This document shows, piece by piece, positions 14,580-24,195 of a DNA stretch of 64,000 bases. The DNA is taken from the IMG/VR virus record IMGVR_UViG_2931359275_000001, one strand, 5' to 3'. The stretch comes from a virus. Position numbers and translations under genes: made by a program. The notes below the pieces were generated by a model, which was not told where the DNA came from, made no database searches, and saw only the letters and a list, made by a program, of their open reading frames with translations. Position 1 is the stretch's first letter, and the number at the start of each line of letters is the position of its first letter.

Positions 14580-14816
14580 CTACTCGGTGGAAATCTTAGT
14601 GCCGCGCAAGTAAGCCCAATTTGCATCAGGGCGTAAAAATTCACAGCGGACGCGCTTATCAGTTTGTTTTTCAATTTCAGGGCAGAATTCAGCAGGCACA
14701 TTGCCGCGCTTTCGCCACGCAGATACACGAGCAGGAGAAGCACCGATGCGCCTCGCTAATTCATTGACGCCACCCAGCAACTCAATGGCTTTATCTAGTG
14801 CAGTTATTTTGTCCAT
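14580..14816 (-). CDS. cro: Cro-like (YdaS family) regulator
   Basis: ALDKAIELLGGVNELARRIG...VPAEFCPEIE...LRPD motif, divergent from repressor. Confidence 0.9.
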   Translation of the reverse strand: MDKITALDKAIELLGGVNELARRIGASPARVSAWRKRGNVPAEFCPEIEKQTDKRVRCEFLRPDANWAYLRGTKISTE

Positions 14817-14822
14817 GCGGCA

Positions 14823-14889
14823 ATTATCAACAATCGTTGATTTAAAGTCAACAAGAGTTGTTGCAAAGGGTCAACATTTGTTGACTAAT
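14823..14889. promoter_or_regulatory. OR/PR of prophage 1: three operators and a lambda-like PR
   Basis: TCAAC-N4-GTTG(A/T) at 14827, 14848 and 14871; minus-strand TTGACT-17-GATAAT lying 6 nt before the cro ATG (leaderless). Confidence 0.8.
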
Positions 14890-14895
14890 AGCACT

Positions 14896-15414
14896 ATGAA
14901 CATGGGAAAACGTATCGCCTTACGCCTTACTGAACTCAACTGGGATCAAGTTGAGCTATGTAATCGCGTCGAAGGTTTAGAACCGCAAGCCTTATCTGCC
15001 GTGATAAAGCGAGATAGCGGCCGCAGTAAATTTGCAGCAGGTATTGCCCAAGCGATGGGCGTAGACCTGAATTGGCTAATGACTGGTGAAGGGAAAAAAG
15101 AAACAACAGGGCAAACGACCAACAATTACCCGCGTGAAATTGAAGTGATCGTCTCTGCTGCCATGCATGCCTACAATTCAGGCGCACTATCAACCGAAAT
15201 GGCAGAGGCTCATGCTGGATTATTTCGAGCGCTCGTCTCTTCAAGCACGTCACGCAAGGTCAGCACAACCAGCAACGACATCAGCGCCGCCACCCTGATG
15301 CAAATCGCAACGGCCACAGATCAAAAGACGGAATCGGACAAACTGTATATAGATAACTCGCCAAAGCGCGCCAAAGCCGAGGCCGCAGCGTCAGAGCACA
15401 AGAAAAAAGCCTGA
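14896..15414 (+). CDS. cI: CI-like repressor, HTH with no S24 peptidase domain
   Basis: XRE HTH ending GVDLNWLMTGEG, divergent from cro; C-terminus has no LexA-type motifs. Confidence 0.8.
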   Translation: MNMGKRIALRLTELNWDQVELCNRVEGLEPQALSAVIKRDSGRSKFAAGIAQAMGVDLNWLMTGEGKKETTGQTTNNYPREIEVIVSAAMHAYNSGALSTEMAEAHAGLFRALVSSSTSRKVSTTSNDISAATLMQIATATDQKTESDKLYIDNSPKRAKAEAAASEHKKKA

Positions 15415-15435: not shown

Positions 15436-15843
15436 ATGACATCGCCAGCTCGTGTCGTACATCATGCCGGCATGACAGGAAACGACATCCGATTGCTACA
15501 CATTCGCCGATTAATTGCACGCTATGAGACAGCAGGCGAGTTCAGTATTGCAGTTGGGATCCCGCAAGAAACCCTCTCACGCTGCATCGGAAAAACACCG
15601 TCTCGCCCCATTAGCGACGACATCTGCGACAGAATTGAAGCGGCGTTAAAATTACCATCTGGCCGTTTGTCTGATTTTTTCGCTCTTTTTGACGTTGAGC
15701 GTCAAATATCCCCCTCTGACGTTGCAAAGCTTACAGCCGCACAAGGTAAGCTTGTCACAACTTTGATACATTCACCGCCTCCTGACGAAGCCGCGGTTTT
15801 GCTTACCCAATTAGTCGCGCAGTTTCGATTAGGAAGCCGATGA
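15436..15843 (+). CDS. Second repressor-like HTH protein
   Basis: DIRLLHIRRLI...RPISDDICDRIEAALKLPSGRL pattern of phage XRE HTH domains. Confidence 0.7.
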   Translation: MTSPARVVHHAGMTGNDIRLLHIRRLIARYETAGEFSIAVGIPQETLSRCIGKTPSRPISDDICDRIEAALKLPSGRLSDFFALFDVERQISPSDVAKLTAAQGKLVTTLIHSPPPDEAAVLLTQLVAQFRLGSR

Positions 15844-15862: not shown

Positions 15863-16618
15863 GTGTTTGTTTTACGCCCAGAGCACTTTGCCGGTTGTAT
15901 CGGCCCACTAAGCAACGGCTTTGCCGTTGCTAAAATAATCGACCCGTTTTGCCACGACATTGAACACGAAGTGCATATTAAAGTTGCACCGGTCAGTAGT
16001 CGCGCCCATATCCACTGTTGGCTGCGTTGGCTACTGGCTGGCGGATTAGGTATTCCCCAGCCCGGTGAAGCATGGTTCATGGTCATCGACGCCGATGACG
16101 CCGCCACGTTACATCCAGACAAAACATGGATTACTGGCAAACTTTATGTCGCCATAGCATTTAGTGCGCCAAGCGGCGGTGAAGCCCCGCCCGTTCGCTA
16201 CGATGACATTCCAATCTCACAGCTTGACGATATAAAACGCTGGCCAGCGATTTACGATCTAATTGCCCTCGATCTATGGGGTGCACGCAGCGCATCACAG
16301 TATGCCAACTGGTGGGAATTAAGCCGAGGCCAATACCTGCACTTCGACGGTAGCGATTGGCTTGGTGGTGAATATTGCACGGACTATCATTCGCTACTCT
16401 GTAAGCATCAGTCACTCGCAGAGCTAATCGTCACTGATGACATCACTCGAGCTCGCGTCCAGCGCGCAGCTAAACGCCATCGTCTCGCCCTCTCGTCGGC
16501 CAGTCCAGAGATTATCAAGTGGGTGACGCTAGTTGTTAATGAAGATGTAGGACATGACATCTACGATACATTGCAAAGCCGAATCAACTTAAGAGGCACT
16601 GCGTATGCCTTCAATTAA
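15863..16618 (+). CDS. HipA-like (HipA_2-type) kinase-fold protein, predicted catalytically dead
   Basis: HIK40, LLAGGLGIPQP, ALDLWGARSASQYAN, LHFD162; catalytic Asp position is Ala144 and alphaC Glu position is Cys52. Confidence 0.65.
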   Translation: MFVLRPEHFAGCIGPLSNGFAVAKIIDPFCHDIEHEVHIKVAPVSSRAHIHCWLRWLLAGGLGIPQPGEAWFMVIDADDAATLHPDKTWITGKLYVAIAFSAPSGGEAPPVRYDDIPISQLDDIKRWPAIYDLIALDLWGARSASQYANWWELSRGQYLHFDGSDWLGGEYCTDYHSLLCKHQSLAELIVTDDITRARVQRAAKRHRLALSSASPEIIKWVTLVVNEDVGHDIYDTLQSRINLRGTAYAFN

Positions 16619-17420
16619 TGACGATGCGATCAACAGACTGCTAGCCGAGTCATATCGCACGGTACCGCAGTTGCCGCAGCAAATCACAGCGATGCAGGCC
16701 GTCGTCAATTTATGCGGTGCTGGCGTTGGATCAGAAATGGGCGCCATCGGCGCAATTTTACAATTCGATGATTCGCACCATCGCAAAACACAAATGATGC
16801 TTGTGCCCACCGAGCGCATTATTGCCAATTTGGCACCCAATTTTAGCGAGCAAACATTAGTTCTGTGGTCGCGTGCTTTAAATGAACTGCATCTACGCTA
16901 CGACAATTCACAGATGAGTATGAATGACGGATTGCCCTGCTCGCCAACGCCCGATCTCATTCAATTCCATTGGCTAGGCCAAGCAAAGGGATTTAAACCC
17001 AGCCAGATGCTAGAAAGCTGGTTCAATACTCGTTGCGGATTTCACTTGCTAGCCAGCAAAACCAAAGCCAAGGGCGGCGACGGCAACAACCCAGCGCTAC
17101 CGACCTCGCAGTTAATCCAAGTTTTGCGCAAACGGCTCAGCGGCATGGAGTTGATCGAAAATAATGAGCACTGGCACTTGTGGCGCGGCAATGGCCGCTC
17201 TGTTGCGCTTTTGCACGTAAACCCGCATGAGTGCAGCAAAGAACAAATCAGCAACGCCGCAGGCATACTTTGCCAAATTGCCCCCGACGATAACAAAACG
17301 ATCTGTGTGGTATGCGATGATGCCGAAACCATTAAAGCCGCAGACCGATTCATCGAGCAGCTAAAGATAATGGCTGTTGAATTAGAAGCATCCGACAATC
17401 CCGCCGACTTAATGCTGTAA
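16605..17420 (+). CDS. Partner of HipA-like protein (DUF3037-like N-terminal region)
   Basis: Overlaps kinase gene; PQLP...VVNL...GSEMGAIGAIL pattern resembles partners of HipA_2 kinases. Confidence 0.5.
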   Translation: MPSINDDAINRLLAESYRTVPQLPQQITAMQAVVNLCGAGVGSEMGAIGAILQFDDSHHRKTQMMLVPTERIIANLAPNFSEQTLVLWSRALNELHLRYDNSQMSMNDGLPCSPTPDLIQFHWLGQAKGFKPSQMLESWFNTRCGFHLLASKTKAKGGDGNNPALPTSQLIQVLRKRLSGMELIENNEHWHLWRGNGRSVALLHVNPHECSKEQISNAAGILCQIAPDDNKTICVVCDDAETIKAADRFIEQLKIMAVELEASDNPADLML

Positions 17421-17603: not shown

Positions 17604-18416
17604 TTGGCACCACCCACACCAGTAAAAAAATATATGAAGCCAAACAAGCAGCCCGTCACAAATTCACTTTTGGATCAAATTGACGCTTTATTTTCCAATG
17701 GACAACGCCTCTCATCTAGCGACATTCGCGTGCCCAGAGCAAGGGCCGAAATCAAAAAACTAACTCAGTCATCCGATATGAGGCTGCGAGCAGATGGCTA
17801 CATGCTTGAAACAGGGTTGAATTTGTTAATCGGCAACGACGTCCTAGCTAAAGAACTAGCGCATAAAGCGCTAACAGCATCTTTCCATTCAAAAACAATT
17901 GCAATCCAGTTGGCGCAATTTTTTTGTAAAGCTGCTATGTTTGAAGACGCACTAGATATAACCAACGAGTACTTGCATACAGCTGATCCAGAATACTTAT
18001 CTTGGCAAGCACAACTTAGCCACGTACTGCTCCTAACAAACACAGCCCAAAAGGTAGTGGAGATGAATAGAAAATTAGGGAGCCCGGACATGCCAAAAGA
18101 ATTTGCGGAGTTGCTAGGAAAAATTACGCGCACAATTGAAGATTGGAATTTAAATCCTGAACAAATGCAGCAAATGGTCGCATTGGCTTTTAGCATTGCT
18201 AAGCAAGACAATAAACTGCTCAATACTACGCCAGCGCTGCAGCTAGATAAAAATCAAGACCTACTTTGGTACCACATACCGGTGCAAGCATCACCAGCAG
18301 CAACCAGAAAATTAAACAATCAATTCATTGATTCGCTTTTCGAAACGATGCCAGATGCTCCAATAGAAAACTTTCATGTTTCATTCGTAACGGAAGACAA
18401 ACATGGACCACAATAA
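17604..18416 (+). CDS. Hypothetical protein, helical TPR-like N-terminus and small alpha/beta C-terminal domain (start may be ATG 17634)
   Basis: 270 aa ORF with amphipathic helical hairpins; overlaps HEPN gene. Confidence 0.65.
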   Translation: MAPPTPVKKYMKPNKQPVTNSLLDQIDALFSNGQRLSSSDIRVPRARAEIKKLTQSSDMRLRADGYMLETGLNLLIGNDVLAKELAHKALTASFHSKTIAIQLAQFFCKAAMFEDALDITNEYLHTADPEYLSWQAQLSHVLLLTNTAQKVVEMNRKLGSPDMPKEFAELLGKITRTIEDWNLNPEQMQQMVALAFSIAKQDNKLLNTTPALQLDKNQDLLWYHIPVQASPAATRKLNNQFIDSLFETMPDAPIENFHVSFVTEDKHGPQ

Positions 18417-18819
18417 CCTCATTGCGTGGGCAGAGACAGCTCTTCAAAATATAGTAAATAACCCCGTTCAAGGTGATTTAGCAGAGTCAACATACAGAGC
18501 AGTGGGTAGTCGCGCTTATTATGCAATATTCCATGCAAGTCAAAGCCTATGCAATCGACTATTGTTACCACCATCTGCAAAAGATGATTCAATCAAAGGC
18601 TCACATGAAAAGCTCTATCAACGCATGATTGAGTGCACCAGCACTCGGCATACGTCTCACGTAACAATAAGAAAATTGGCTTATCGTGCACGGGGCGATC
18701 AAAAAATGACAAGAGTCCACGCTGACTATAATTTCACTGACGAATTTACATTAGCACAAGCTAGCGACATCCTAAATGAAGCAAAAACAATGATTGCAGA
18801 AGCTGACAAGATTACCTAA
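18403..18819 (+). CDS. HEPN domain protein (UPF0332-like)
   Basis: SRAYYAIFHA, GSHEKL and RVHADY motifs. Confidence 0.85.
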   Translation: MDHNNLIAWAETALQNIVNNPVQGDLAESTYRAVGSRAYYAIFHASQSLCNRLLLPPSAKDDSIKGSHEKLYQRMIECTSTRHTSHVTIRKLAYRARGDQKMTRVHADYNFTDEFTLAQASDILNEAKTMIAEADKIT

Positions 18820-18837: not shown

Positions 18838-18861
18838 AACCCGCCTCGGCGGGTTTTCTTT
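18838..18861 (+). terminator. Intrinsic terminator
   Basis: AACCCGCC/GGCGGGTT stem followed by TTCTTT. Confidence 0.75.
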
Positions 18862-18936: not shown

Positions 18937-20724
18937 ATGGAACCCTTATTACTAATCCCACTTATTGTTTTACTTTTTCTATACATTAAAGAAAAAAAAT
19001 CCCACCAAACAAACATAAAACTCGCCAAATTAAGAGAGGATGAATTAAAGTCGCTACAAGAACTGGCTATCAAAGAAGCTGAATCAAAAAATAAAATACT
19101 AAACGCAGAGAATGATGGTCTTAAGTCAAATATCGAGAAACTTAGTAAATACCAATCCATCGCTGACATCGACGAAGAAATAAAAAAGAAAATAACTGAA
19201 TCGCAAACAATCATCGACAGAAACAAAACGCATGCACAAGACATTGTAAATAGCGCTAAATCAGCAGCAGAAAGCACCATTCAAAATGCAAACATCAACG
19301 CTGCAGAACTTAGAAACAAAGCAAACTCACTACTTATCAGTGCGCGTACCGAATCAGAAACCATAGCCAATTCGGCAAAAGCAAACGCAGAACAAATACT
19401 AAAAACCGCTAGAACCAACGCAGCCGAACTTCGCAACAAAGCAGACCAAGCGCTTAACGCTGCCAATAGCCAAGCAGCAGAAATCACACAAAGAGCGCAA
19501 AACAACGCGACAAGCATCGCTGGCGACGCTTATACAGCACTAGAGCGAAGCAAAGAAATCCAAGCCACTGTCACCGCTATGGAAAATGTAATAAAAGGCT
19601 ACGGCATCAAATACCTCAAACCCACACAAAGCCTACTTGATGATTTAGCTGATGGATTTAGCCATACTGACGCAGGATTGCAGCTAACCGCAGCCAGAAA
19701 AAACAGCAAATTACTCACCGAGACGGGCAAGGCTGCCGTGTGTGACTATGTCGAAGTCAATCGAAGCCAAACGGCAATTGCATTCGTAACCGATGCATTT
19801 AACGGCAAAGTAGATTCAATTTTAGCCACCATCAAAGCAGAAAACATCGGAAAACTAGAGCAGCAAATTCATGACGCATATAGTCTAGTGAATCATCTAG
19901 GCAAAGCATTCAGAGACGCCCGAATTACACCCGCCTATCTAGAGTCTCGATTACAAGAACTTAAATTAGCCGCCACAGTAGTAGCATTGCGCGATCAAGA
20001 GCGTGAAGAACAACGCCAAATCAAAGAACAAATCCGCGAAGAAGAAAAAGCCCGTCGCGAATATGAGCGCGCAATTAAAGATGCAGCCAAAGAAGAAGAA
20101 AATATTCGCAAGGCCATGGAAAAAACAGCAACACAAATTGCCAAGGCCACCGATGAACAACGCACTGAATTCGAACTTAAATTGGCAGAGTTACAAGAAA
20201 AACTCACCGAGGCAGAAGCTAAAAATCAACGCGCACTCTCAATGGCACAACAAACCCGTGCTGGACACGTTTATGTCATTTCAAATATTGGTTCATTTGG
20301 CGAAACCGTATTCAAAATCGGCATGACGCGTCGACTAGAGCCGATGGACCGCGTCAAAGAATTAGGCGACGCCTCCGTACCTTTTACTTTTGATGTTCAT
20401 GCCATGATGTATAGCGACGACGCCCCAGGTCTTGAGCGTGAGCTACATCGCCGCTTCAACCTACAGCGTATGAATATGGTTAATTTCCGTAAGGAGTTTT
20501 TCTGTGTCGATTTACAACAGATCAAAAACAGCATTACTGAACTTACCGGAGGTGATTTACTCAAAGAAGCGCCTCACTTCACCCTAACCGCTGCCGCGCA
20601 TGAATACCACGAAACTCAGGCGATCAAGCACATGAACCAAGAAGAGCGTAATCAACATCTAGCACGGCTTCTAAACTTAGAGGCGCTTACGCCACTTGAA
20701 GAACTCAGCGAAGAAATTGAATAG
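18937..20724 (+). CDS. Membrane-anchored DUF4041 + GIY-YIG (T5orf172) nuclease, PD-lambda-1/SNIPE-type defence protein
   Basis: N-terminal TM helix, long coiled coil, AFNGKVD DUF4041 region, GHVYVISNIGSFGETVFKIGMTRRLEPMDRVKELGDASVPFTFDVHA. Confidence 0.88.
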   Translation: MEPLLLIPLIVLLFLYIKEKKSHQTNIKLAKLREDELKSLQELAIKEAESKNKILNAENDGLKSNIEKLSKYQSIADIDEEIKKKITESQTIIDRNKTHAQDIVNSAKSAAESTIQNANINAAELRNKANSLLISARTESETIANSAKANAEQILKTARTNAAELRNKADQALNAANSQAAEITQRAQNNATSIAGDAYTALERSKEIQATVTAMENVIKGYGIKYLKPTQSLLDDLADGFSHTDAGLQLTAARKNSKLLTETGKAAVCDYVEVNRSQTAIAFVTDAFNGKVDSILATIKAENIGKLEQQIHDAYSLVNHLGKAFRDARITPAYLESRLQELKLAATVVALRDQEREEQRQIKEQIREEEKARREYERAIKDAAKEEENIRKAMEKTATQIAKATDEQRTEFELKLAELQEKLTEAEAKNQRALSMAQQTRAGHVYVISNIGSFGETVFKIGMTRRLEPMDRVKELGDASVPFTFDVHAMMYSDDAPGLERELHRRFNLQRMNMVNFRKEFFCVDLQQIKNSITELTGGDLLKEAPHFTLTAAAHEYHETQAIKHMNQEERNQHLARLLNLEALTPLEELSEEIE

Positions 20725-20743
20725 TAAAGAAACAACCAATTTG

Positions 20744-20767
20744 AACCGCCTTAGGGCGGTTTTTTTT
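20744..20767 (+). terminator. Intrinsic terminator
   Basis: AACCGCC/GGCGGTT stem plus T tract. Confidence 0.8.
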
Positions 20768-20786
20768 CGTCCCAAAATCAACAATG

Positions 20787-20846
20787 CCAAATATTGTTGA
20801 TTTTTAATCAACTTATGTTGACTAACAATCAACAATTGTTTATCTT
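20787..20846 (+). promoter_or_regulatory. OL/PL of prophage 1
   Basis: Same operator as OR (TCAAC-TTAT-GTTGA at 20808, near-matches at 20787 and 20829) over TTGACT-17-TATCTT (20818-20846). Confidence 0.8.
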
Positions 20847-20930
20847 TAACACATCACCCCAGCGCAGCGGTGCTGATGTGGGTGTTCAGCCAGTACCAAA
20901 TTCCCCCGCTGCGCTTTTTTGGATGCCCAC

Positions 20931-21305
20931 TATGCGTTCAGCAACAGACACCCTACGCGACATTGCCGGCGGCGAGCTGGTCGAGGATCTCGGCGAAGTC
21001 ATCCGCGAGCTAAACACAGCTATCTCCCTCGTCGACAACGGCAAAGGCGGCAGCATCACCGTAAAAATCAATATCAAACCCGCAGGCCGTCAATCTGGCG
21101 CGATGCGTGTGGGTTATGACATCAAGCTCAGCAAACCAAACCAACCACGCCGCGAATCGATCATGTTTGGTACGCCAGAAGGCGACCTACTCGCCACCGA
21201 TCCAACCCAACGCCAGCTCGACCTACGCGACATCAACGCCACCAGCCCGACCACGGTGCGCGATGTGAACACCACCCCAATCACCCTTAAACAAGTCACC
21301 GCCTA
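20931..21305 (+). CDS. Conserved phage protein preceding DUF2303
   Basis: MRSATDTLRDIAGGELVEDLGE...KGGSITVKI; paralog at 58920. Confidence 0.75.
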
Positions 21306-21320
21306 ATCCGAGGAAAAACC

Positions 21321-22223
21321 ATGCCAGCAGAACAAATCGAAGCCGAACTCGTCAGCCAACCCAGCGCTGTTGCACAAATCTTAAAAGCCGCCCAAAAGCC
21401 GTTTCAAGAAAACGTTGAATTAGAGGCTTATCGTGAAGGGTATCGCCCTGTAGTCTTTATCCCTAATGGCTACAAAGCCGAATACCCCGACTTTGAAAAG
21501 CACCTAGACACCCCGCTACGCAAAACAGGCACCGTGCGCTTAGATGATGCCGAATCATTCGTTTGGTACTTGAAAGAACACGGCCAAGCCAACCGCACCC
21601 GCACCTATCTACAAGCCGATTACGCCGCAGGCAAAGTCAGCTTCACCGCGCTACTCAACGACCACCAAGGCGGCTACACCGAGCAAAACTGGCGCGACCA
21701 TAAAGCCCTATTTACCCCGGCTAATTCCGTGGAGTGGAATACGTGGACAAAGAACAATCGCGAACCAATGATGCAAACCGAGTTCGCCACCTTCCTCGAA
21801 GACAACCTCGCGAATATTTGCGTCATCGAAGGTTTACCGACCGCCACCGACATGATGGAAATGGTGCTCAACTTTGAAGCCACCAACGAAAAACGCTTCA
21901 AATCCGCCGCGCGCCTGCAATCTGGCGGCATCAACTTTGAATACATCGACCAAGAAGACTCCGTCACCAGTAGCAAGATGAAAGTGTTCGAGCGCTTCGC
22001 GATTGCGATACCGGTATTTGTCCAGCCGATTGCCGCCACAGACGCCATCGTCGGCTACCGCATCGATTGCCGCCTGAAATACCGGATTAAGAGCGGTGCA
22101 TTGCTGTTGTGGTTTGAACTGGTACGCGAAGACAAAGTGTTAGAGGCCGCCGCCAAAGACATCGTCGCGCAAATCCAAAACGACAGCGGTTTCCCACTGA
22201 TTGCCGGTAACCCATTCGCCTAA
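21321..22223 (+). CDS. DUF2303 (YfdQ-like) family protein
   Basis: SVEWNTW...MMQTEFATFLEDN and FKSAARLQSG motifs; paralog at 59525. Confidence 0.85.
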   Translation: MPAEQIEAELVSQPSAVAQILKAAQKPFQENVELEAYREGYRPVVFIPNGYKAEYPDFEKHLDTPLRKTGTVRLDDAESFVWYLKEHGQANRTRTYLQADYAAGKVSFTALLNDHQGGYTEQNWRDHKALFTPANSVEWNTWTKNNREPMMQTEFATFLEDNLANICVIEGLPTATDMMEMVLNFEATNEKRFKSAARLQSGGINFEYIDQEDSVTSSKMKVFERFAIAIPVFVQPIAATDAIVGYRIDCRLKYRIKSGALLLWFELVREDKVLEAAAKDIVAQIQNDSGFPLIAGNPFA

Positions 22224-22299
22224 GCATTCCCAGCGTCCAGCCGTTTGAATCAGCACCTACAGACGGCTTGGCGATGTGAATCAAAACAAGGACAGCATC

Positions 22300-22440
22300 A
22301 TGCATACGCTCACAGTTGAATTAATCGACAGCACTGAAGACTTTTTTGTTTTGCGCACTTGGCGGCTACGCGGATGGCGCATTACCCACAAAACGGGTGA
22401 TCGCTATCAAGCCACCCAAACCATCAAGGTGGCAGCATGA
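22300..22440 (+). CDS. Small hypothetical protein (46 aa)
   Basis: AAGGA RBS; ATGA overlap with dNMP kinase start. Confidence 0.5.
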   Translation: MHTLTVELIDSTEDFFVLRTWRLRGWRITHKTGDRYQATQTIKVAA

Positions 22441-23081
22441 AACCTCAAATCATCATTGGCCTTACGGGCAAAGCAGGCGCAGGCAAAGACACTGTTGCCG
22501 ATTACCTCGTGACGCAAAAATTCACCAAAATCGCTTACGCTGATCGTCTCCGTGACGACGTGTGCTTTGCCTGGGGCATCGCGCCCGAGCTACTCACCGA
22601 GCGCAGCACCAAAGAAATACCCCAAACCGCGCTCGCGATATCGGGCTGTCAAGACAGCCGCTTCTTGCAACACATTTTGATCGTGCTAGCCGGTGATGAT
22701 CGCTCGCAATGGGAAATCGAAGCCCGCATGCCGCGAGCACCGCGTTGGATTATGCAGCGTTGGGGCGACTACCGCCGCGCCCTATTTGGTGCCGACTATT
22801 TCTTGATCGAGCTCGCCAACAGAATCGCCGAAATCGACGGCCACATCGTGGTCTCTGACGTGCGCTTTGATAACGAAGCCCAACAGCTGAATCAATTAGG
22901 TGCATGGCTATGGCAAATCCAACGCCCCAACCTCACCGCCGTAACCCAACACGCCAGCGAACAAGGCATCAAATCAGACTGGATTGACTGCGACATCAAC
23001 AACCACGGCACCATCGACGACCTAATCGAAAACACCGCAGATAAATTGACACTGGCGATTTTTGGGGAGAAAGCAGCATGA
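22437..23081 (+). CDS. Deoxynucleotide monophosphate kinase
   Basis: IIGLTGKAGAGKDTVA P-loop, AYADRLR, PRWIMQRWG, VVSDVRFDNEA. Confidence 0.88.
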   Translation: MKPQIIIGLTGKAGAGKDTVADYLVTQKFTKIAYADRLRDDVCFAWGIAPELLTERSTKEIPQTALAISGCQDSRFLQHILIVLAGDDRSQWEIEARMPRAPRWIMQRWGDYRRALFGADYFLIELANRIAEIDGHIVVSDVRFDNEAQQLNQLGAWLWQIQRPNLTAVTQHASEQGIKSDWIDCDINNHGTIDDLIENTADKLTLAIFGEKAA

Positions 23082-23590
23082 GTAAAAAACACACACCCAC
23101 GCTTTGGGCATTTTCAGATACCGATTACTTAAGCGCAAACGGCGTAAAGGCTCGTTTTTGTGAAATTGTAGAACAAACAAAAACGTTTGCGCACTACCGT
23201 CTTTTTGAGGTGCAAAACCCAGCAGAAGACAAAGTCATCGCTCTCTTGGGCTGTGGGCCTGCTAGTTACGACAACGCTCGCCGCATCGTGGCCTGCGTAA
23301 ATCGCCTTACCGCATTCACTACAGAAGACATCGAAAATCCAGCAATCGATTTATTTGGTATTTCCGCATCACAACAGCGAATCTGGAACGCAGAACAACA
23401 GCGCGACGAGCTACTGGCCACGCTAAAAAAACTAGCCGTCGCAACATCACACTATCGAGTCGAATTAGCCGCATTCGTCGGGTTTGGCGCAAATCAACCC
23501 TGCGACGCCGAACGAGCAGCGTATATCGCCATCGCCAAAACGAAAACACGCTACTCATCCGACGTAGAAAGCGACGGTGGTGAGATATGA
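23078..23590 (+). CDS. Hypothetical protein ending in RYSSDVESDGGEI
   Basis: ATGA overlaps on both sides. Confidence 0.7.
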   Translation: MSKKHTPTLWAFSDTDYLSANGVKARFCEIVEQTKTFAHYRLFEVQNPAEDKVIALLGCGPASYDNARRIVACVNRLTAFTTEDIENPAIDLFGISASQQRIWNAEQQRDELLATLKKLAVATSHYRVELAAFVGFGANQPCDAERAAYIAIAKTKTRYSSDVESDGGEI

Positions 23591-24195
23591 AAGTCAAGCT
23601 AAAAATCAATAATCCAGCCGCCGCTATCGCCAGCGCCAAGCGCGTGAAATCGGTACTTGACCGCATCGAGGGCGACTTGGTCATCACCACCGATCACAAC
23701 ACCATCATGACGAGTGAATACACCGTTGCAAATATCTTTTTTTCCTACGCAGCCAAGTACGGCATGCTCGTTAAAGTTGAGGGCGAAGGCACTCAAAAGC
23801 GTCAGGTTTGGCGCAAAACAGGTGAATTCCCCGAGTTTATCGCTCCCGAAATCAGCGAAAGTAAACGCCTTCAGCTCGAAAACCAAGGCCGTGGCCGTGG
23901 TGCAAAACGCACTAAACCCGCCGCAGACAATCAGCAAGTCGCAACGTATTCCAGCGCCAAACAGCGCGCTAACGCGGCAAAAAGCAGCGCCAAACAAGGC
24001 AACGGCTCGGTACTAAAACCCAAATTCAACCACTCAATCAGCCCAGCCAACGAGCCAAAAAATTACGATTTATACGATCGCTACCAGCCCAGCCGCCTAG
24101 GCATCATGAACGAAATCGAAGACAAAGGCGGCTACCAACACCACGTGCACCAGCCAGCCACCACAGGCCGCGTGTTTAGCAAGGGGAGATATTAA
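23587..24195 (+). CDS. Hypothetical protein
   Basis: 202 aa, in-operon ATGA overlap. Confidence 0.65.
   Translation: MKVKLKINNPAAAIASAKRVKSVLDRIEGDLVITTDHNTIMTSEYTVANIFFSYAAKYGMLVKVEGEGTQKRQVWRKTGEFPEFIAPEISESKRLQLENQGRGRGAKRTKPAADNQQVATYSSAKQRANAAKSSAKQGNGSVLKPKFNHSISPANEPKNYDLYDRYQPSRLGIMNEIEDKGGYQHHVHQPATTGRVFSKGRY

Follow-up and report, generated by a model that had tools for sequence, protein, structure and literature searches.

A HipA/CtkA-fold pseudokinase candidate in a three-gene cassette behind a prophage repressor

The IMG/VR virus record IMGVR_UViG_2931359275_000001, analysed here as one stretch of 64,000 nucleotides (nt) that we call the window, carries directly behind its prophage repressor gene a cassette of three genes, HTH2, ORF251 and ORF271. 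The predicted structure of ORF251 confirms a HipA/CtkA-type kinase fold, and judging by its active-site residues the protein should lack phosphotransfer activity. We lean towards explaining ORF251 as a pseudokinase kept by selection in a cassette from the PDC-M66/DS-6/HipAD lineage of defence systems, in which it would work by binding only, as a sensor or scaffold. A first-pass annotation, made from the sequence alone, had described ORF251 and ORF271 as an intact two-gene module built on a dead kinase. The pair is intact and under purifying selection as it had proposed; the count of two genes does not stand, as HTH2, a small helix-turn-helix (HTH) protein, belongs to the unit. The cassette genes are as follows.

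15436-15843, + strand: HTH2, small Cro/C1-type HTH protein, first cassette gene, in a HipB-like position
15863-16618, + strand: ORF251, predicted HipA_2/CtkA-fold pseudokinase; GTG start, with AAGG 7 nt upstream
16605-17420, + strand: ORF271, partner gene; ATG start, preceded by AAGAGG

Kinase fold and active site of ORF251

An exhaustive phmmer search of 1.84 billion protein representatives returned 11 homologs of ORF251 (identity 23-34%, E 3e-14 to 4e-4). The AlphaFold2 (AF2) model built on their alignment has a predicted local distance difference test score (pLDDT) of 85 and a predicted template modelling score (pTM) of 0.85. The closest solved structure is Helicobacter pylori CtkA (Z 15.1, root mean square deviation 3.5 for 218 residues, sequence identity 11%; VIA-align), and the same program places HipT and HipA at Z 11-12. 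A protein annotated in AFDB as 'HipA-like kinase domain' matches the model with a TM score of 0.71. The kinase fold expected by the first-pass annotation is thus recovered by structure search.

ORF251 and ORF271 have no usable match in Pfam, PADLOC or NCBIfam (Pfam and PADLOC to E ≤ 1), and a PHROGs scan of both gave only a weak match to phrog_11186. In a word-indexed search of 5.8 billion protein clusters ORF251 matches only itself, whether used whole or as residues 1-160; megablast against phage and E. coli collections gave no match, and PDB sequence searches with ORF251 and with a profile of its subfamily returned nothing relevant. In the Atlas embedding, ORF251 lies at 0.97 to clusters carrying HipA_2. 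The homolog P0010 matches Pfam HipA_2 at 24.8 bits (E 1.5e-5; the gathering threshold of PF20613 is 27 bits), the sole match among 10 subfamily homologs scanned, and PADLOC PDC-M66A at E 0.013. When a 14-member profile of the subfamily was aligned with four bona fide HipA_2 proteins by hhalign (E 1.7e-4, probability 49%, 134 columns), the β3 Lys, the αC Glu, the catalytic loop (N-x-D-R) and the metal-site Asp (I-D-H) fell into the same register. From structure, embeddings and these transitive profile links, we read the ORF251 subfamily as a divergent, phage-borne branch of HipA_2 that lies beyond the curated models.

Residue columns were read from an alignment of ORF251 with its 11 homologs, which is gap-free across the catalytic loop. 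The positions of interest are these.

15980-15982, + strand: K40, β3 Lys, kept (K in 10 of 11 homologs)
16016-16018, + strand: C52 (TGT), replacing the αC Glu (E in 11 of 11 homologs)
16274-16309, + strand: degenerate catalytic loop L138-N149, L-W-G-A-R-S-A-S-Q-Y-A-N compared with the family pattern E-W-x-A-N-x-D-x-N-x-G-N
16346-16348, + strand: D162, metal-binding Asp of the DxG motif, kept (D in 11 of 11 homologs, also in the metagenomic contig L001)

Ala-144 occupies the position of the catalytic Asp, which all 11 homologs and bona fide HipA_2 members retain, and the αC Glu is likewise present in bona fide HipA_2 members. N149 is kept in ORF251, as in 11 of 11 homologs. The alignment agrees with each residue call of the first-pass annotation, both for the kept K40, N149 and D162 and for the replacements at positions 144 and 52. 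Beyond those that it listed, further changes in and around the loop are E138L, N142R, N146Q and G148A, and W172C, L177S and K184S alter residues that are invariant in the family. Codon 52 differs from a Glu codon (GAR) by three base changes, and the change to Cys is therefore unlikely to be recent. A compensated frameshift that masks the catalytic motif can be ruled out, the motif being found in no other reading frame. Operationally, we call a pseudokinase any intact gene under constraint that encodes a kinase fold and is short of one or more of the β3 Lys, the catalytic Asp and the metal-binding Asp. ORF251 fits this definition by its kinase fold, the D144A replacement, an intact reading frame with a Shine-Dalgarno-like motif, and purifying selection.

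P0010 itself (L008:1235-2044) has an Asn in the β3 Lys column and keeps the αC Glu, the catalytic Asp and Asn and the metal-binding Asp; its locus, L008, has no HTH2 gene upstream.

Selection on the cassette and recurrence of the dead state

The sole close relative of the window version is L001, a 1187-bp Logan metagenomic contig. It covers the final 100 codons of a gene homologous to ORF251 (76% identical) and, in full, a homolog of ORF271 (78%); searches of IMG/VR, JGI metagenomes and GTDB genomes found no close relative. By the Nei-Gojobori method, the proportions of nonsynonymous (pN) and synonymous (pS) differences are 0.136 and 0.72 over the C-terminal 98 codons of ORF251, and 0.137 and 0.77 (saturated) over ORF271. 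These values indicate that the C-terminal third of ORF251 and the whole of ORF271 are under strong purifying selection and not in decay; the dN/dS comparison proposed in the first-pass annotation, with pN 0.14 and pS 0.72-0.77, thus gives no sign of relaxed selection. In a tree of the C-terminal block, the window tip measures 0.19, the L001 tip 0.10 and their common stem 1.47 (support 100%), and the length of this stem places ∼89% of the excess divergence in the common ancestry of window and L001. L001 too departs from the family at W172, N183 and K184. Position 184 is a Lys throughout the live members of the inner family, and both dead lineages have lost it. Stem branch and shared C-terminal departures suggest that the functional shift, and with it the residue loss, is probably older than the split between the window and L001.

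The kinase-like gene occurs in 7 of 56 genomes of the bacterial family examined and in 8 of 401 genomes sampled from the order. Three of the seven family loci carry a live catalytic set and four a dead one, and three of the dead copies form a second clade:

L021:1477-2265, - strand: kinase-like ORF of L021 (genome G002, from the window's own genus), dead clade 2
L022:1489-2304, + strand: kinase-like ORF of L022 (G048, another genus), dead clade 2
L023:1501-2295, + strand: kinase-like ORF of L023 (G052, same genus as L022), dead clade 2

The clade has 100/100 support and spans three species in two genera. Its members have replaced the β3 Lys by Phe or Tyr and the αC Glu by Gln, Met or Asn, and a 2-residue deletion leaves their catalytic loop without Asp or Asn. 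They share 37-42% identity with one another, all frames are open, and pN within the clade is 0.39-0.47 compared with 0.45-0.49 between live pairs. This second clade is older than the dead lineage of the window. The first-pass annotation had suggested an alignment of homologs to see whether the D-to-A and E-to-C changes mark a conserved clade; most relatives keep the Asp, and a second dead clade, seemingly independent, exists.

The dead state appears to have arisen twice, in the window lineage and in clade 2, by what look like independent losses. A single origin is not favoured, the best tree requiring two losses and 0% of bootstrap trees allowing one; the well-supported branches taken alone are still compatible with one loss of the catalytic state. 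The terminal branch of ORF251 is the longest in the tree, at 2.38 against a median of 0.89, and across the same seven loci the window branch measures 1.15 for HTH2, 1.93 for the kinase and 1.25 for the partner.

The three-gene cassette and its place between the operators

HTH2 shares 37-41% identity with the corresponding ORF at loci L003 and L004, and it stands upstream of the kinase-like gene at every locus from genomes of the bacterial family (7 of 7) and from IMG/VR (11 of 11). IMG/VR was scanned with two alignments, one scan using the catalytic-loop motif as its pattern and thus being biased towards live copies; three IMG/VR loci were already among the genome loci, and 14 distinct loci besides the window were obtained. 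HTH2 is the best conserved member of the cassette, and the unit consists of HTH2, the kinase-like gene and the partner. The Atlas neighbours of HTH2 are HTH_3 and LexA-family N-terminal domains and Cro/C1-type HTH proteins; HTH2 therefore occupies the place that hipB holds in hipBA.

The gene 5' of HTH2 is a Cro/C1-type repressor-like ORF at 13 of 14 loci, and a Peptidase_S24 domain was found in 0 of 13 such ORFs (window, L018-L023, L037-L040, L043 and L044), in line with the non-cleavable repressor to which the first-pass annotation had linked the module. As a side observation, the whole phage group appears to rely on non-autocleaving repressors. The loci lie in prophages with terminase, CII, cro and integrase homologs. 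The prophage of G002 is particularly close to the window outside the cassette, its PD-Lambda-1, orf214 and orf170 proteins being 97% and its orf300 protein 90% identical to those of the window. Its cassette, which is of the other dead type, is only 23-25% identical, its cro 44% and its CII 37%. The divergent cassette, cro and CII beside near-identical flanks imply that the cassette moves together with the immunity module in a family of mosaic phages. Comparison of L030 (G002:C1:2668000-2687900) with window positions 18937-24195 also displays a sharp mosaic breakpoint between the cassette and PD-Lambda-1; cI, like cro and CII, differs strongly between the two, and the G002 prophage is without the pair of genes for a 270-aa protein and a HEPN-like protein that follows the cassette in the window.

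The features around the cassette are given below; TCAACAnnnGTTGA denotes the operator palindrome, located by a direct and inverted repeat search.

14580-14816, - strand: cro-like gene (YdaS/Cro HTH), divergent from cI; Pfam YdaS_toxin E 1.7e-21, P22_Cro E 2e-4; phrog_35
14827-14891, no strand: OR, three TCAACAnnnGTTGA operator palindromes, spacing 21 and 23 bp, between cro and cI
14896-15414, + strand: cI-like repressor, 172 aa, N-terminal HTH; Pfam Phage_CI_repr E 5e-5; phrog_4 (transcriptional repressor) E 3.8e-10
17604-18416: gene for a 270-aa protein with weak TPR signal, overlapping the HEPN-like gene; AT-rich gap of 180 nt upstream of the pair
18403-18819: HEPN-like gene, 138 aa; Pfam HEPN E 0.02, phrog_5176 E 3e-19
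18838-18855, + strand: first terminator-like hairpin of this strand, 3' of the 270-aa/HEPN-like pair
18937-20724: PD-Lambda-1 homolog, 595 aa; PADLOC E 9e-114; DUF4041 and T5orf172/MUG113 domains
20808-20842, no strand: OL-type operators, two further copies of TCAACAnnnGTTGA just past PD-Lambda-1, at the far edge of the immunity region

A Pfam scan of the window cI gave no Peptidase_S24 match. The window contains 9 occurrences of the pattern TCAACAnnnGTTGA, where chance would give 0.98. Its copies on either side of the genes place the cassette inside a lambda-like OR-OL immunity region, in the slot that rexAB occupies: the cassette lies between OR and OL, on the strand of cI, with no intervening terminator. 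On the + strand, no terminator-like site was found between cI and the cassette, nor any before 18838. The tight packing that the first-pass annotation saw in the run cI-HTH2-ORF251-ORF271 holds at the nucleotide level, with gaps of 21 nt between cI and HTH2 and 19 nt between HTH2 and ORF251, and a 14-nt overlap of ORF251 and ORF271. By this packing and location, the cassette is most likely transcribed together with the S24-less cI in the lysogen. OR and OL together enclose an immunity region of ∼6 kb with three cargo modules.

The AF2 model of ORF271 (pLDDT 74) has two domains.

16605-17069, + strand: N-terminal domain, residues 1-155, DUF3037-like (AF2 model)
17106-17420, + strand: C-terminal domain, residues 168-271, restriction-endonuclease-like (REase-like)/DUF1829-like fold

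The C-terminal domain matches EcoT38I, CdiA-CT, Can2 and N.BspD6I at Z 6.4-7.2 (VIA-align), and the alignment of the ORF271 family contains no conserved D/E-x-K motif. An active nuclease in this domain was accordingly rejected as unsupported, which bears out the earlier remark that ORF271 has no nuclease motif. The same annotation had likened ORF271 to a DUF3037-type partner. Here the evidence is indirect and divided. In the Atlas, ORF271 lies at 0.91 (TM 0.41) to a cluster with DUF3037 in 19% of its members; its positional homolog at L008 matches DUF3037 at 21.7 bits (E 2.5e-4), just below the cut-off of 22.6 bits that is the gathering threshold of PF11236; and the L023 partner gives a faint DUF1829 signal. 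When 337 ORFs of distant loci were ranked with a profile of the partner family, the first 7 were all the ORF directly downstream of the kinase gene, including that of L008. ORF271, P0003 and four family members have no DUF3037 match, and a direct hhalign comparison was not significant. An identity as a DUF3037/DUF1829-like partner is thus supported only indirectly. Partners are 26-29% identical across loci. Short ones of 156-182 aa, seemingly without the REase-like C-terminal domain, occur at L038-L044 and at L022/L046. In the AFDB protein A0A317N2E7 (557 aa), residues 10-250 match the ORF251 model and residues 281-547 the ORF271 model, and A0A317N2E7 is thus a natural fusion of kinase and partner.

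Known relatives and candidate functions of the cassette

The module of the window is a variant of a described system and not of a new kind. A HipA-like kinase with DUF3037 forms the PADLOC candidate PDC-M66, which has been validated as defence system DS-6 and renamed HipAD (PMC13092281). The first-pass annotation knew of no such system; that part of it falls away, as the parent is already on record (PMC13092281, PMC12548924). DS-6 no longer defends once a predicted catalytic residue of its kinase is mutated, and in an AlphaFold3 prediction the kinase and a partner with DUF3037 and DUF1829 bind each other (PMC13092281). In the Retron-Sda1 operon, deletion of the kinase abolishes defence and deletion of the DUF3037 gene is toxic (PMC12548924). 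As in PDC-M66/DS-6/HipAD, a HipA_2-type kinase-fold gene overlaps in the window a gene for a partner of ∼270 aa with a putatively DUF3037-like N-terminal and a DUF1829/REase-like C-terminal domain, and the location on a mobile element beside other defence genes is shared too; as in the Retron-Sda1 operon, there is an HTH gene nearby. The window kinase differs from those of DS-6 and Sda1 in being without the catalytic Asp and the αC Glu, neither window protein is detected by the PADLOC and Pfam models, and HTH2 is a constant third member of the window unit, whose position behind a prophage repressor is likewise constant. A literature search returned no paper that unites pseudokinase, HipA and phage.

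Other systems share parts of this arrangement. HipA and HipT have kinase activity, with aminoacyl-tRNA synthetases as their targets. HipBA and HipBST resemble the cassette in the kinase fold and in a Cro/C1-type HTH gene directly upstream, namely hipB, and differ from it in having no DUF3037 partner; ORF251 is unlike HipA itself in lacking the N-terminal domains and the catalytic Asp (HipA D309; compare PDB 3TPT, a D309Q mutant). CtkA is like ORF251 a minimal single-domain HipA-like kinase; unlike ORF251, it is an active kinase, secreted by H. pylori. Fam20A and the JH2 domain of JAK2, both structural matches of ORF251, are kinase folds under selection without a full catalytic set, and they offer a working model in which regulation or scaffolding is achieved by binding; they differ in being eukaryotic and unrelated in sequence. 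By location the nearest parallel is rexA-rexB of lambda, which also lies between OR and OL, directly 3' of cI, on the same strand and without a terminator, so that probable expression matches as well; sequence and fold are unrelated. RexAB consists of a sensor and an ion channel, and the lambda rexAB genes are exclusion genes co-transcribed with cI.

The reading we favour, with modest confidence, starts from a HipA-like kinase and DUF3037 toxin-antitoxin-like defence system, from which the cassette would descend. In the window lineage the catalytic Asp, the αC Glu and three more polar residues of the active site would have been replaced, probably before the split from L001, and all three proteins would have stayed intact thereafter. 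ORF251 would then no longer phosphorylate a target and would act as a binding subunit, either sensor or scaffold, which may still hold a nucleotide through K40, N149 and D162. We envisage it in complex with ORF271, with HTH2 as a HipB-like DNA-binding or autoregulatory component. The complex may exclude superinfecting phages, either through sequestration or through binding to DNA, or it may control the immunity region in which it is encoded. A six-frame search of the whole genome with PF20613 gave no match, and no other HipA_2-like kinase was found in it; ORF271 would therefore not be kept merely to neutralise a live toxin.

Several points weigh against this pseudokinase reading. The characterised relatives need the kinase residue, so a dead cassette would be without a known route to defence, and no substitute effector is visible. 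The inactivity of ORF251 is deduced from its residues, and some kinases without canonical residues stay active. The selection test spans only the C-terminal third of ORF251, and L001 is cut off just past the catalytic loop, so that residue 144 of the only close relative lies outside the contig. The window branch is the longest for all three cassette genes, and the speed-up specific to the kinase is only ∼1.5-fold. Finally, as both proteins escape the Pfam, PADLOC and NCBIfam models, their family placement depends on structure, on embeddings and on profile links that are transitive, and the partner family aligned with one DUF3037 protein by hhalign reaches only E 0.044 and a probability of 1.2%.

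A possible alternative, which we consider clearly less probable than the pseudokinase reading, is that the cassette, live or dead, is a part of the lysis-lysogeny switch that responds to a signal by inactivating or modulating the S24-less cI, as a built-in antirepressor or induction module, the dead lineages doing so by binding alone. The Cro/C1-type repressor-like ORF directly 5' of HTH2 at 13 of 14 loci, none with Peptidase_S24, the conservation of HTH2 above the other components, the terminator-free interval between cI and cassette, and the covariation of the cassette with cI, cro and CII and not with PD-Lambda-1 (97% in the G002 prophage) would all fit such a role. The association may nevertheless be simple linkage inside one related phage group, no antirepressor-like feature was identified, and lambda rexAB shows that exclusion genes can occupy exactly such a place. 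Moreover, homologous two-gene systems defend alone, outside phage switches (PMC13092281, PMC12548924). In its fullest form, which we put forward as speculative and rather unlikely, a group of temperate phages would have wired a HipA-like kinase or, in two lineages or more, a pseudokinase, its DUF3037 partner and a second HTH protein to a non-self-cleaving repressor as a device for controlling induction or immunity. If that were true, the repeated and stable loss of catalysis would mean that the device acts by regulated binding and not by phosphorylation, and it would be a previously undescribed input to the lysogeny switch built from a defence or toxin module.

ORF251 might instead still be an enzyme, a weak kinase, ATPase or nucleotidyl transferase in a module that would still be a toxin-antitoxin-like defence. 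Three nucleotide- and metal-binding residues are kept (K40, N149 and D162), purifying selection on the protein is strong, several so-called pseudokinases have later proved active, and a non-canonical base or other chemistry might serve. Yet E52, E138, N142, D144 and N146 are all lost together, leaving a loop without any acidic residue, and dead clade 2, in which the β3 Lys is gone and the loop has a 2-residue deletion, argues that the cassette tolerates complete loss of the site. In DS-6, moreover, a single point mutation of a predicted catalytic residue abolishes defence (PMC13092281). We regard residual enzymatic activity as improbable. A decaying remnant, that is a toxin-antitoxin-like module with inactivated toxin that drifts to loss and has no present function, is more improbable again. 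Toxin inactivation is a common fate of such loci, most homologs keep the catalytic residues and the terminal branch of ORF251 is the longest (2.38 against the median of 0.89), all of which would fit decay. Against it, pN/pS is far under 1 against L001 for both genes, and ∼89% of the extra divergence predates the L001 split. The ORFs also show no disruption, their Shine-Dalgarno-like motifs are good, and stop and start overlap; in dead clade 2 the frames have stayed open although ∼60% of amino acids have diverged, and pN there resembles that of live pairs. Least credible to us, by a little, is a decoy or anti-defence role, in which dead kinase and partner would mimic a live HipA-like system and soak up its trigger, partner or substrate, shielding prophage or host from the live cassettes of rival phages. 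Pseudoenzyme decoys are known in other immune systems, and the prophages of this one bacterial family do carry cassettes of both sorts (of 7 loci, 3 are live and 4 dead), but a search of the genome yielded no live HipA_2-like kinase, and cross-binding is doubtful between dead and live proteins that share only ∼25% identity.

The validation of HipA-like kinase and DUF3037 systems as anti-phage defence is recent, and toxicity of the kinase is regarded as the basis of their mechanism. Dead versions kept under selection, in prophage immunity regions and in two lineages, would mean that the cassette can also act in a way that needs no catalysis. In that case the current toxin-antitoxin model would not describe the family completely, or else the module has been put to another use, be it sensing, decoying or control of the switch. 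Live and dead alleles occur naturally in one slot of near-identical prophages, and the window and G002, with flanks that are 97% identical, are a ready-made experimental comparison. What makes the system interesting is, besides these natural alleles, that a kinase of the defence type has lost catalysis repeatedly and under selection.

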